Below, piece by piece: positions 25,820 to 58,892 of a DNA stretch of 64,000 bases; the first letter of the stretch is position 1; each line of letters begins with the position of its first letter. The notes beneath the pieces were generated by a model. That model did no database searches. It was not told the DNA's origin and saw only the letters and a list, made by a program, of their open reading frames with translations. Source of the stretch: Candidatus Krumholzibacteriia bacterium (GTDB taxonomy: Bacteria > Krumholzibacteriota > Krumholzibacteriia > LZORAL124-64-63); contig JANTFX010000003.1 in NCBI GenBank assembly GCA_024763215.1, positions 3,519 through 67,518 of the forward strand, in the 5' to 3' direction. A program made the position numbers and the translations under genes.

Positions 25820-25849
25820 TTGACATGGCGAAGGTTATGTTGAAATAAT
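25820..25849 (+). promoter_or_regulatory. Sigma70-like promoter TTGACA-17/18 nt-AAATAAT upstream of the IHF/HU gene
   Basis: Read directly. About 55 nt upstream of ATG 25905. Confidence 0.45.
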
Positions 25850-55522: not shown

Positions 55523-57652
55523 ATGAAGCGAATCAAGAGTGTGCAGGCGGGGGTGTTGCTGCTGCTGGCGGTCGTCCTGCTGATGCCCGTTTCCTCCCAG
55601 GCCAAGAAACCGTGGGAGAAGATCAAGGTGCCTCAGCTGCACCAGATCCGGATGCCGGACTACCAGCGCGTCGAGCTGGACAACGGCATGGTGCTGTACC
55701 TGGCCGAGGATCACGAACTGCCGCTGGTGAACATGCGCGCCACCATCGACGTGGGCAGCATCTATGAACCGGCCGACAAGATCGGGCTGGCTTCGATGAC
55801 CGGCACGGTCATGCGCAGCGGCGGTACCGCCACCCACAGCGGTGACGAGATCGACGAGATGGTCGAATCCCGCGGCATGTCGGTGGAGACCTGGATCGGG
55901 CAGACCGACGGCGGCGCCCGTGTCTCGACCCTCAAGGAGGATACCCAGCTGGGTCTGGACCTGCTGGCCGACATCCTGCGCAACCCGGTGTTCCCGGAGG
56001 ACAAGATCAAGCTGGCCAAGGAGCAGCAGAAGGCCGCCATCAGCCGGCGCAACGACGACCCCATGACCATCGCCCGGCGCGAGGGCATGGTGGCGGTGTT
56101 CGGCAAGGATCATCCCCTGGCCCGCTACCCGGAGTACAGCACCATCGCCGCGGTGACCCGCCAGGACATGATCGATTTCCATGACGCCTGGTTCCACCCC
56201 GACCGCATGTACCTTGTGGTGACGGGCGATTTCCGGACCCAGGACATGATCGACCGCATCACCCAGGCGTTCGCCGGGTGGGCCAAGGCGACCGTGGACC
56301 TGCCGGATGACCCGGAGATCCCCGACCTGCCGCGCACCGTGAACATCGTGGACAAGGACGATCTGACCCAGACCACGGTACTCATGGGCCACAAGGGCAT
56401 CCGCGCCGACAGCCCCTACTACGCGGGCGTCATGGTCGGCAACCGGATCCTGGGCGGGGGGTTCTCCACCCGTTTGTTCAACGAGATTCGCAGCCGCCAG
56501 GGCCTGGCCTATTCGGTGGGCAGCAGCCCGGGTACGGGATTTCGGTATCCGGGTATGTTCAATGCCTTCTGCATGACCAAGAGCGAGACCAGCCAGAAGG
56601 CTACCGAGGGCGTGCTCAAGGAGATCAAGCGGATGATCACCGAGCCGGTGACCCAGGAGGAGCTGGATCAGGCCAAGGACGGGATCCTCAATTCCGAGGT
56701 CTTCAAGTTCGACACCAAGGAAGAGATCCTGGGCCGCATGGTCATGTTCGAGCGGTACGGCTATCCCGCGGACTTCCTGCAGAAGTACCAGGAGCAGGTG
56801 CGCGCCATGACCGCCGACGAGGTGCTCAAGGCCTGCCAGGCCGTGTGGAAACCCGATCAGATGACCATTCTGGCGGTGGGCGACTACAAGGACTGGGACG
56901 GTGATTTCAGCGAATTCGGTCCGGTGAACATGGTGGACATCACCATCCCCGAACCGGCCCTGGAGATCCCCGACGCCACCCCCGAGTCCCTGGCCCGAGG
57001 CAAGAAGCTGATGGAGGCCGCCCGCGAAGCCGCCGGCGGCAAGGCCCTCTTCGACGGTCTGAAGGCGTACTACAACAAGTCCCTGCTGGCGGCCACGATC
57101 CAGGGTATGGACATGAACTTCACCATCGAGAAGACGGTCGTCTTCCCGGACAAGGCCTACACCCTGCAGAAGACCCCGTTCGGGACCATGACCAGCGTGC
57201 TGGCCGGGGACAAGGGCTGGGGGACCGGCCCCATGGGCAACAAGGACATGTCCGGGGACGAACTGCAGGCCGCCCGGGATGAACTCATGAACGACACCGT
57301 CGGCGTGTTCAAGCACCTGGACCGGTTCCAGTGCCAGGCCCTGGATGCGACCAAGGTCGACGGCGTGCTCTGCAACCCGGTGCACGTCAGCGGGGTGGGG
57401 GACGATTACCAGATCTTCTTCCTGAACGCCGAGAACGGCCGGGTGTTCATGATCCAGGCCCCGGGACGCTCTCCCATGACCGGTTCACCGGTGACGCAGA
57501 AGGTCTACGTGGACGACTACATGCAGGCCGGCGGATTCACCATGCCCAAGGCCATGCGCCTGACCTACGACGACGACCTGTTCGGGACCATCACCGTCCA
57601 GGAGTTCCAGGCGAACCCCAAGGTGGACATGGGGCTGTTCGAGAAGAAGTAG
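55523..57652 (+). CDS. M16-family peptidase-like protein lacking HxxEH, with ~250-aa C-terminal extension
   Basis: ORF track 55517..57652 (listed start TTG). ATG 55523 lies 6 nt after AAAGGA. Signal peptide. GLASMTGTVMRSG occupies the zinc-motif position. Confidence 0.85.
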   Translation: MKRIKSVQAGVLLLLAVVLLMPVSSQAKKPWEKIKVPQLHQIRMPDYQRVELDNGMVLYLAEDHELPLVNMRATIDVGSIYEPADKIGLASMTGTVMRSGGTATHSGDEIDEMVESRGMSVETWIGQTDGGARVSTLKEDTQLGLDLLADILRNPVFPEDKIKLAKEQQKAAISRRNDDPMTIARREGMVAVFGKDHPLARYPEYSTIAAVTRQDMIDFHDAWFHPDRMYLVVTGDFRTQDMIDRITQAFAGWAKATVDLPDDPEIPDLPRTVNIVDKDDLTQTTVLMGHKGIRADSPYYAGVMVGNRILGGGFSTRLFNEIRSRQGLAYSVGSSPGTGFRYPGMFNAFCMTKSETSQKATEGVLKEIKRMITEPVTQEELDQAKDGILNSEVFKFDTKEEILGRMVMFERYGYPADFLQKYQEQVRAMTADEVLKACQAVWKPDQMTILAVGDYKDWDGDFSEFGPVNMVDITIPEPALEIPDATPESLARGKKLMEAAREAAGGKALFDGLKAYYNKSLLAATIQGMDMNFTIEKTVVFPDKAYTLQKTPFGTMTSVLAGDKGWGTGPMGNKDMSGDELQAARDELMNDTVGVFKHLDRFQCQALDATKVDGVLCNPVHVSGVGDDYQIFFLNAENGRVFMIQAPGRSPMTGSPVTQKVYVDDYMQAGGFTMPKAMRLTYDDDLFGTITVQEFQANPKVDMGLFEKK

Positions 57653-57671
57653 GGATCAGCCTTGATCCGAT

Positions 57672-57700
57672 AGGGTGGGCGGCGGTGAGCCGCCCACCCT
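57672..57700 (+). terminator. Perfect hairpin AGGGTGGGCGGC-ggtga-GCCGCCCACCCT
   Basis: Read directly: 12-bp stem, 20 nt after the M16 stop, no U-tract. Confidence 0.65.
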
Positions 57701-57755
57701 GTTAATGCGTAGGTGGAAATTCCGGTGTTTATTTCGGCTCGTTGCCGCTTGTGCG

Positions 57756-57784
57756 TTGACCCGGATGCTGTGGCGTGGTAGAAT
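57756..57784 (+). promoter_or_regulatory. Near-consensus sigma70 promoter TTGACC-17 nt-(TGg)TAGAAT with extended -10
   Basis: Read directly. The best promoter match I found in the window. No protein gene begins within 330 nt downstream. Confidence 0.6.
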
Positions 57785-57790
57785 GCCGGT

Positions 57791-57995
57791 AGTTGAAAAG
57801 ATATAGCTGCTTCAGAGGTCTACCCGGAATTGAAGGATTGAAGTGCGCGAGCTTCGAAATCCCCGGGAGCTGTCGCCAAAGAAGCAGCTATGTTCATATT
57901 ATAGCATTTAATGATATATCATGTCCAGTATTTTGTGAAATGAAAATATCACCGTGATTTGTACGCGTTTTGACGCCCTCCCGCGGGAGTTTTTG
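57791..57995 (+). ncRNA. Candidate ~200-nt structured transcript (orphan sRNA, or long regulatory leader of the downstream small membrane-protein gene)
   Basis: Predicted TSS about 7 nt after the -10. 93-nt extended hairpin at 57801-57893. AT-rich tail with palindrome ATGATATATCAT (57911-57922). Weak terminator CTCC-cgcg-GGAG-TTTTT (57978-57994). No class assignment possible by eye. Confidence 0.35.
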
Positions 57996-58121
57996 TGCGA
58001 AAGTCCGAATATTCTTGCCGTCCAGGGGTATAATTACCACCTGATGACATGAAACTCGATGCGGGTTTTGACGTATCACGCCTACCGGACGCAGTGGCGC
58101 GGCCGGTTGGCAGGGGGAGAG

Positions 58122-58400
58122 ATGATCATGTTCTTGCTGGATCTGGTGGTCCTGATGGCCATTCTGACGGTGGTGCTGAGCGTGGGCCTGCTGGTGCTGA
58201 AGTTCGCCTTCGCCCTGGTTTTGCTGCCGCTGAAGCTGGTCTTTTTCCTGACCAAGGGCCTGCTGGCCCTGGTGGTCGCCCTGCCCTTGATGCTGATCTT
58301 CGGCGGCCTGGTCACGGCGCTGTTGCCGGTGGGGCTGATCCTGCTGCTCCTGCCGGTGATCGTCCTGGGGGGGATCGCCTGCAAGCTGGTGGGCATCTGA
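58122..58400 (+). CDS. Small Leu/Val-rich integral membrane protein (92 aa, about 3 TM helices)
   Basis: Within ORF 58059..58400. ATG 58122 or 58128 directly after GGGGGAGAG. Very high GC3. MIMFLLDLVVLMAILTVVLSVGLLVLKFAFALVLLPLKLVFFLTKGLLALVVALPLMLIFGGLVTALLPVGLILLLLPVIVLGGIACKLVGI. Confidence 0.6.
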   Translation: MIMFLLDLVVLMAILTVVLSVGLLVLKFAFALVLLPLKLVFFLTKGLLALVVALPLMLIFGGLVTALLPVGLILLLLPVIVLGGIACKLVGI

Positions 58401-58415
58401 TCCGCGGTGTGACGG

Positions 58416-58892
58416 TCAGCGCTTCTTCATGCTGATGGTCAGGCGGAACTCGGCCACGGGTTCGTCGCCCAGCTTGTCCGGGCAGGTGGCCGTGACCCGG
58501 ACGGTGCCTTCCTCGCGCTCGCCGCTCTGCTCGGCCGCCGCCAGCAGGCCGGCCAGCATGTCTCCGTCCCGGCAGGTGAACACCGTGGCGCCCTCGGCGC
58601 GCTTGAGGAAATCGGCGTGGAAGTCCTTGAACAGGAACGCCACGCGGGACTGCCGGCGGCGGATCATTTCCATGATGATCAAACCCCCGGCCAGATCGGC
58701 CCCGATGCACAGGGCCCCGAAGTAAAGGCTGCGCAGATGATTGCGGTTATAGTAATTGCAGGGGATCCGGATAACACATTCCCGGTCGTCGAGGGCCAGC
58801 ACACCCGGGCGCACGGCGGCGATCAGGGGGATCTTCCACAGGGCGAACATTCGTAGCCAGAGCGTGGATTTCCAGAGTGTGGGCCGTCCCAT
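58416..58892 (-). CDS. DUF4442-type hot-dog-fold (thioesterase-like) protein
   Basis: Within ORF 58416..58970 (-). ATG 58892 after GGAAGGA. ...LWKIPLIAAVRPGVLALDDRECVIRIPCNYYNRNHLRSLYFGALCIGADLAGG... Confidence 0.8.
   Translation of the reverse strand: MGRPTLWKSTLWLRMFALWKIPLIAAVRPGVLALDDRECVIRIPCNYYNRNHLRSLYFGALCIGADLAGGLIIMEMIRRRQSRVAFLFKDFHADFLKRAEGATVFTCRDGDMLAGLLAAAEQSGEREEGTVRVTATCPDKLGDEPVAEFRLTISMKKR

Follow-up and report, generated by a model that had tools for sequence, protein, structure and literature searches.

The intergenic region between the M16b gene and the gene of a small membrane protein in the 64,000-nt stretch of Candidatus Krumholzibacteriia DNA analysed here (the window) harbors a conserved hairpin, which on balance is probably the body of an sRNA gene of about 97 nt transcribed from the minus strand. 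In approximately two thirds of the bacterial family, this gene would be opposed by a convergent promoter. Among the genomes compared, the hairpin is conserved, shows covariation, is accompanied by promoter-like sequences and U-tracts, and is linked to the membrane-protein gene. From these patterns we infer that transcripts are produced, where they would end, which strand acts, and that there would be a target.

The conserved part of the intergenic region

The stop codon (57652) of M16b, the second M16 peptidase gene, and the start codon of the 92-aa membrane protein (58122) are separated by a gap of 469 nt. The initial annotation of this region had described an AT-rich island, and indeed GC content, calculated in 200-nt windows, drops to 45% in the gap (0.45 to 0.455 at 57800-58099 vs 0.60 to 0.70 on both flanks). 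All sequence features included in that annotation are present at the positions given here. It had combined them to an orphan sRNA of about 200 nt consisting of three parts or, alternatively, to a long leader of the membrane-protein gene. Related genomes were searched at the DNA level and then with blastn, which revealed that only the part from about 57745 to 57935 is conserved. For the region from about 57943 to 58070, no relatives were obtained by these searches, even within the genus, and no similarity to relatives was detected beyond 57942. The conserved unit comprises about 190 bp, two promoters and an 88-nt hairpin. A structured sRNA locus without counterpart in Rfam was retained from the original proposal, but not the transcript of about 200 nt in three parts, the palindromes and the short hairpin with T5 being unconserved.

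Both palindromes were found, ATGATATATCAT at 57911-57922, which has no strand assignment, and GAATATTC at 58007-58014. The former is located within the spacer of the minus-strand promoter described below, in a stretch that varies in the alignments. The sequence CTCCCGCGGGAG followed by T5 (57978-57994, plus strand) is present as well, but it was not called by a terminator scan and is not conserved even within the genus, being specific to this genome and outside the conserved element. The GC-rich hairpin at 57672-57700 (plus strand), 3' of the M16b stop codon and annotated as M16 terminator, has 12-bp arms, but no T-run follows it here. In relatives devoid of the plus-strand promoter, a classical M16b terminator occupies this place and abuts the hairpin region.

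Distribution of the hairpin

When prokaryotes, represented by one genome per species, were scanned for exact patterns, 30 loci were obtained, nearly all from genomes labelled Candidatus Krumholzibacteriota; the few carrying other labels show the same gene neighbours. With a first covariance model the hairpin was detected in 64 of the 208 genomes of the phylum, and with a second one, built from 54 members, in 73 of the 208, which belong to 24 genera. All matches of both models fall within the family to which the window belongs, and each genome matched contains a single locus. When the filters were switched off, three further members from three more genera of this family were obtained. In the 3.23-Mb genome containing the window, the hairpin is likewise present as a single copy.

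Four of the loci (L037, L046, L049, L051) are from records labelled Fibrobacteraceae and one (L058) is from a record labelled Gemmatimonadales. All five share the M16-hairpin-membrane protein-DUF4442-icmF neighbourhood with Krumholzibacteriota genomes, and the labels of these MAG records are probably wrong or outdated.

Horizontal origin of the segment, which had also been considered, is unsupported, since the locus is single-copy and syntenic across at least 24 genera and no similarity to phages or plasmids was found. The end of a repeat or mobile element (REP, MITE, IS end, attC) was rejected on similar grounds: there is one copy per genome without phage or plasmid similarity, and the neighbours inserted in some genomes appear to be ordinary genes.

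The flanking proteins, including M16b, are less conserved than the hairpin, with identities of 63-70%. Since the hairpin is far better conserved than these proteins, its conservation points to a specific partner. This could be a protein or a target in trans, either of which appears likely, as the sequence is conserved beyond the needs of a purely cis-antisense role.

Structure and covariation of the hairpin

Predicted folding and the alignment of relatives define an irregular hairpin of about 88 nt at 57803-57891, assigned to the minus strand as the body of the proposed sRNA. Its perfect arms of 11 bp are located at 57803-57813 and 57881-57891; P1 is formed by ATAGCTGCTTC/GAAGCAGCTAT, and the closing stem of 12 bp by AUAGCUGCUUCA/UGAAGCAGCUAU. 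The hairpin also contains a short helix with a conserved asymmetric internal loop (GGTCTAC / TGTCGCC) and a variable middle helix, P3, which is CCCGG/CCGGG here and adopts many forms among the relatives. The apical stem-loop GAAGTGCGCGAGCTTC (57840-57855) has a stem of 5 bp and a conserved GCGC-containing loop; across relatives, this stem (P4) alternates between GAAG/CUUC, GGAA/UUCC, and AAGG/CCUU. The core of the apical loop is self-complementary, CGCG/GCGC in the window and GCGCGC in genus g35, which in principle could allow self-dimerisation by loop-loop contact, as in retroviral dimerisation hairpins, or kissing between sense and antisense RNAs. A K-turn or loop E motif was looked for by eye in the conserved internal loop without a consistent fit across clades.

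The extended hairpin of the initial annotation is real (57800-57893). The stretch of 211 nt from 57790 to 58000 folds at -62.1 kcal/mol with a z-score of -3.05, a value reached by none of 200 shuffled sequences. The covariation test in relatives that had been proposed was strongly positive. In 54 distinct sequences, 95.5% of the cells are standard pairs, and changes on both sides were observed for 16 of the 26 pairs. The covariation score, which is somewhat favoured by the model-fitted alignment, is 0.220, compared to 0.096 for shuffled alignments (none of 500 reached it) and 0.03 to 0.07 for slid partners. As expected for a structured non-coding RNA, compensatory changes keep the base pairs across relatives. 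Judged from the alignments, the element is a selected nucleic-acid hairpin, and neither a coding sequence nor a protein operator. A coding alternative, a 54-aa open reading frame starting with TTG (57793-57957), was discarded, as insertions/deletions and compensatory changes track the helices and not codons.

The search of Rfam 15 that had been suggested was performed with cmscan for 57500-58500 on both strands (E up to 10), and nothing was found on the hairpin. The sole match in this region is a chance hit to mir-2066 at 58002-58067 with 21.9 bits, the gathering score being 100. The hairpin is also not one of the housekeeping RNAs of comparable shape. Bacterial SRP (4.5S) RNA (RF00169) matches elsewhere, at C1:30652-30749 with 68 bits, and 6S RNA (RF00013) at C2:5836-6015 with 72 bits; the hairpin is matched by neither model, and 6S RNA, at about 180 nt with a central bubble, is much longer than its approximately 88 nt.

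In four loci of genera g9 and g7 (L105-L108), about 30-45 nt separate the plus-strand promoter from the main hairpin, and this interval contains an extra GC-rich hairpin, GCCCGCGGGCGCC...GGCGCCCGCG. The membrane-protein gene is missing in these genomes.

Promoters flanking the hairpin

The initial annotation had placed the relevant promoter on the plus strand and regarded it as the best sigma-70 match in the window. This sequence, designated P+, is present at 57756-57784 (TTGACC-17-TGgTAGAAT) and matches 10 of 12 consensus positions. However, the better match is on the minus strand (57927..57898, 11 of 12), and it is this promoter, P-, which would fire into the hairpin from the right, that is universally conserved. 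Its extended -10 sequence TGcTATAAT is located at 57898-57906, the hexamer being the complement of 57898-57903 and TGc that of 57904-57906. An 18-nt spacer separates it from a -35-like hexamer, TGGACA (57922-57927), where GTCCA or GTCTA is kept in many relatives, and an A/T-rich stretch lies just beyond. Transcription is predicted to start at 57891, the first base of P1. In the entire 64-kb window only five sigma-70 matches of at least 10/12 were detected, and two of them flank the hairpin. Other such matches are TTGACA-18-AATAAT with TG at 25820-25849 on the plus strand and TTTACA-17-TATGAT at 46826-46798 on the minus strand.

Among 55 unique loci, the P- pattern TGnTAnnnT is found in 45, with a chance expectation of 0.07 per locus, and the other ten retain TATAAT without TG. 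In the hexamer, no change is seen in TA or in the final T, whereas positions 3 to 5 vary, as does the base after TG, which is free; the variants of the hexamer are limited to TATAAT, TATGAT, TACAAT, TATTAT, TATCAT, and TAAAAT. This stretch behaves like one conserved as a promoter and not as RNA. The spacing between P- and the stem core is fixed at 6-11 nt, and P- is found at the same spacing in the most divergent genera g10, g12, and g13. In these genera and in g35, P- is present and P+ is missing.

P+ obeys the same rules for a promoter but is more variable. TGnTAnnnT, mostly with TTGACC at a distance of 17 nt, was detected in 40 of the 55 loci and is missing in 15, including whole genera; it is separated from the hairpin by 14-23 nt in 31 loci and by 29-95 nt in nine. 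Both promoter patterns, whose convergent arrangement would be expected of a cis-antisense pair, occur together in 40/55 loci, and the remainder contains P- alone. In the window, the start predicted for P+ is near 57791, and the two starts are about 100 bp apart. The overlap of the two transcripts (about 57791-57891) would cover no ribosome-binding site or comparable control point, the nearest start codon being that at 58122; this possibility was rejected.

As a yardstick for promoters, the SRP and 6S RNA genes were inspected, but no recognisable promoter was found in the 70 nt upstream of either. The SRP RNA gene (C1:30580-30749) is located about 40 nt downstream of an apparent tRNA 3' end (…GGTTCGAGCCC…CCA), which suggests that it may be co-transcribed with the tRNA and processed.

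At the other side of the hairpin, a U-rich tail, AUCUUUUCAACUA, is encoded on the minus strand (57790-57802), and the sRNA is proposed to end within it, at about 57795. Of 64 loci, 39 have a run of at least three U within 14 nt after the stem core on the minus strand, compared to ten on the plus strand; the minus-strand U-tract is missing in about 40% of the loci. Intrinsic terminators consist of a short GC-rich stem followed by a U-tract. The hairpin was not called by the terminator scan, and its size of 88 nt and its conserved loops are atypical of them.

Assignment of the strand

Base pairing did not decide which strand is functional. Folding of the plus strand is better by about 4 kcal/mol in 30 of the 31 members from the window's clade, which is caused by two fixed U.G pairs, C.A on the other strand. 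In contrast, all nine of the most divergent members and several others show better folding of the minus strand, by 1-11 kcal/mol. In divergent members, GAAGCCGC/GCAGCUUC reads as U.G on the minus strand, as opposed to C.A on the plus strand. Counted over all pairs, 102 wobble cells are of the G.U type on the plus strand vs 26 of the A.C type, which are G.U on the minus strand; the numbers of positions with plus-only and minus-only wobbles are about equal, nine vs ten. Genus g35, devoid of P+, shows a mixed folding preference. By these comparisons, the base pairs appear to leave the strand assignment split between clades, and the near-symmetric pairing would be consistent with transcription of both strands in many members.

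Since pairing and folding energies conflict between clades, the assignment of the strand rests on the promoter and U-tract patterns. P- is universal and at fixed spacing, and the U-tracts are biased to the same strand; therefore, the minus-strand RNA is read as the constant product of the family. P- would start transcription at about 57891, the first base of the 12-bp closing stem, and the RNA would fold into an irregular hairpin of about 88 nt with conserved internal loops and a GCGC-containing apical loop. It would end in the U-rich stretch near 57795, resulting in a stable RNA of about 97 nt. Here and in approximately two thirds of the family, P+ would produce a perfectly complementary RNA from about 100 bp away. 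The locus would then act as a sense/antisense pair, by formation of an RNA duplex, collision of polymerases, or both, and the plus-strand transcript would be an antisense partner varying between lineages.

The functional RNA could instead be the plus-strand transcript from P+, either an sRNA of about 110 nt ending in the AU-rich stretch 3' of the hairpin or a long sigma-70-dependent leader extending into the membrane-protein gene, with P- in a secondary or antisense role. We regard this as rather unlikely, though more probable than the other alternatives. P+ is a very good promoter kept in 40 loci, and the orientation of the hairpin relative to the membrane-protein gene is constant. In addition to the folding preference in the window's clade, one locus (L042) has U-A in place of U.G, which is consistent with pairing on the plus strand. 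On the other hand, whole genera without P+ retain the hairpin and P-, P+ is located at variable distances of 14 to 95 nt from the hairpin, and just ten of 64 loci have a U-run after the hairpin on the plus strand. Neither the 5' leader nor the sequence after the hairpin is conserved like an RNA, only as the promoter pattern of the other strand. Also against the plus-strand reading are the conserved downstream promoters predicted for the membrane-protein gene itself and the persistence of P+ and hairpin where this gene is missing.

The membrane-protein gene and its predicted ECF promoters

The gene downstream of the hairpin (58122-58400, plus strand) encodes a protein of 92 aa with three predicted membrane helices and no match in Pfam or NCBIfam, referred to here as TM92. 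It is found in 71 of 91 genomes of the family, single-copy and syntenic, with 40-89% identity. In the loci compared, it is on the same contig as the hairpin within a few hundred bases, in nearly all of them 150-350 nt downstream, and the order M16a-M16b-hairpin-membrane protein is kept in nearly all. In three loci, genes have been inserted into the interval from the M16b stop codon to the hairpin, 2.5 kb in L049, 1.3 kb in L057, and 4.4 kb in L031. The inserts encode proteins of 805, 329, and 1392 aa, and the hairpin stays with the TM92 gene. Integration of genomic islands at the 3' end of the sRNA was considered for these three inserts and rejected, as they appear to carry ordinary genes and no integrase was seen.

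Aligning the sequences upstream of the TM92 start codon revealed two motifs resembling promoters of ECF sigma factors. The first, GAATAT-N13-GGGTA at 58007-58030 (plus strand), is present with strict spacing in 38 of 53 loci; its consensus in the family is GAA[T/C]A[A/T]-N14-GGGTA. It contains the palindrome GAATATTC and overlaps the TATAAT sequence at 58029-58034, which was present as annotated. The second, TGAAAC-N16-CGTATC at 58050-58077 (plus strand), about 45 nt 5' of the TM92 start, resembles sigma-W-type promoters. It was detected in 42 of 53 loci, in 38 with a 16-nt spacer, its form in the family being TG[C/A]AAC-N16-CGTA. Both motifs vanish exactly where the TM92 gene is missing.

Elsewhere in the window's genome, GAATAA-N14-GGGTA is found directly 5' of an operon for an ECF sigma factor and a zf-HC2 anti-sigma factor (C65:1320, plus strand), the pattern expected of an autoregulated ECF promoter, and 5' of a LemA gene (C52:18158, minus strand). 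It is a candidate motif of an ECF-sigma regulon. It also precedes a possible outer-membrane protein gene (C3:74030, plus strand, outside the window). TG[C/A]AAC-N16-CGTA[T/C] occurs just four times in the genome.

Since the TM92 gene has its own predicted promoters downstream of the hairpin, a leader of 330 nt or a riboswitch is unlikely. Riboswitches and other cis-regulatory leaders are located within the 5' UTR of the regulated gene, between promoter and start codon. Here, the two predicted ECF promoters at 58007-58077 are 3' of the hairpin, the sequence from 57943 to about 58005 is not conserved, and the hairpin persists in four genomes without the gene; the long leader or attenuator proposed initially is considered unlikely for these reasons. 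In these genomes, of genera g7 and g9, hairpin, P+, and P- are all kept, and no TM92 homologue was found anywhere in the genome. Two genera lack both the hairpin and TM92. The distribution suggests that the hairpin is functionally tied to an envelope-stress neighbourhood and may have a role beyond the TM92 gene alone, and the minus-strand RNA is probably a regulatory RNA of this ECF envelope-stress neighbourhood. Pairing of the RNA of either strand with the TM92 translation start was not indicated in a crude comparison of whole-length duplexes (duplexfold) with shuffled sequences, the mean z-scores being -0.17 and -0.04.

The setting of the hairpin between genes allows other interpretations. 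It could be a large bidirectional terminator or insulator that separates TM92 from the M16 operon, with promoter-like sequences next to it by chance and without function as an RNA, but this appears improbable. The hairpin is always located between convergent or tandem transcription units, and in some genera an A-tract and a U-tract flank the stem (AAAAAGAAGC...GCUUCUUUUU), as in a terminator acting in both directions. Terminators, however, drift rapidly in sequence, whereas here almost no variation is seen in 12 stem pairs, two internal loops, and the apical loop, next to proteins of only 63-70% identity. Many members possess a classical M16b terminator upstream, an irregular 88-nt hairpin with conserved loops is not terminator-like, and in every member a promoter is found at fixed spacing, 7 nt, from the hairpin base.

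Even less probable is an arrangement as in type I toxin-antitoxin systems, in which TM92 would be a hydrophobic toxin translated from a long mRNA initiated at P+, and the minus-strand hairpin RNA its antisense antitoxin. Convergent promoters, a stable antisense hairpin, a small and very hydrophobic protein encoded downstream, and the close co-occurrence of hairpin and TM92 gene, including the two genera without both, would fit such a system. Type I toxins, however, are small (less than 60 aa) and hydrophobic with a patchy, often multi-copy distribution, quite unlike the syntenic single-copy protein of 92 aa and three helices whose identity is 40-89%. Moreover, the TM92 translation start is 230 nt outside the overlap, no complementarity to this region was found in the crude duplex search, TM92 has its own ECF promoters, and the RNA locus persists without it.

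That the hairpin acts as DNA, as a cruciform or single-strand hairpin for recombination, replication, or protein binding, is hardly credible: its two strands are almost equally paired, G.U-type and A.C-type pairs being similarly rare except for two fixed sites, and its apical loop has a self-complementary GCGC/CGCG core, but it is single-copy and syntenic without phage or plasmid match, no recombinase or mobile-element genes are nearby, the promoters on both sides are aimed into it, and the helix sequences are too variable for co-evolution with a DNA-binding dimer.

Comparison with known regulatory RNAs

By analogy, the locus is most like cis-encoded antisense hairpin RNAs or orphan sRNA genes divergent from a related gene. 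The former are represented by RNA-OUT/RNA-IN of IS10, CopA/CopT of plasmid R1, and FinP/traJ of F, which are arranged with face-to-face promoters. As predicted here, RNA-OUT, CopA, and FinP are stable stem-loop RNAs of about 70-100 nt transcribed from a strong promoter, with a convergent promoter about 100 bp away and fully complementary transcripts, and loop-loop contact as a first step of interaction is plausible for the hairpin as well. In contrast to these plasmid- or transposon-borne systems, the locus is found on the chromosome as a single, syntenic copy throughout a bacterial family, no translation start is located within the overlap, the opposing promoter is missing in one third of the members, and the sequence is conserved far beyond the needs of complementarity.

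OxyS-oxyR, GcvB-gcvA, MicF-ompC, and IstR-tisB are examples of orphan trans-acting sRNA genes divergent from a functionally related gene. Shared with these are an sRNA gene that stands alone and has a promoter of its own, the hairpin here appearing to double as terminator, a position back-to-back with the promoters of a neighbouring conserved gene, in this case that of the ECF-controlled membrane protein, and retention in a few genomes from which this neighbour has been lost. Unlike these sRNAs, almost the whole RNA is one hairpin without an evident single-stranded seed, and the target search, a crude one directed at the TM92 start, found none. We know of no RNA chaperone in Krumholzibacteriota.

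With SRP 4.5S RNA and 6S RNA, the hairpin has in common that it is long and irregular, with paired 5' and 3' ends, conserved internal loops, and a single copy. It differs in being about half as long as 6S RNA, restricted to one family, and without match to either model, and both RNAs were found elsewhere in the genome. Like a riboswitch or 5' leader, it is a conserved structured element upstream of a conserved gene in the same orientation; unlike these, it is separated from the start codon by predicted promoters of the gene, has no conserved expression platform and no Rfam match, and persists without the gene.

A more specific proposal can be put forward only tentatively: the face-to-face promoters, fixed on the chromosome throughout the family, may give rise to two perfectly complementary hairpin RNAs of about 100 nt each, forming a sense/antisense switch coupled to an ECF envelope-stress gene, or the invariant loops and the 12-bp stem may be the mark of a structural RNA that binds a protein and represents a new class confined to Krumholzibacteriota.

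Significance for Krumholzibacteriota

Candidate sRNAs of such kind are regularly found by comparative genomics, and the locus is not a new kind of system. As far as can be judged from sequence, the hairpin is a previously undescribed RNA family outside the curated RNA families, belonging to a known kind of system. To our knowledge, no cultured model is available for Krumholzibacteriota, and a literature search for sRNAs in this phylum revealed nothing relevant and no described regulatory RNA. The hairpin provides the phylum with a well-supported RNA family of about 76 members that shows covariation and for which both promoter and context are defined. A first look at the promoter grammar of the phylum is offered as well, with a predicted extended -10 sigma-70 promoter and two predicted ECF-type motifs, one of which is also located 5' of an ECF sigma operon. 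The convergent-promoter design, kept in many genera, could serve as a simple and testable example of chromosomal antisense control or transcriptional interference.
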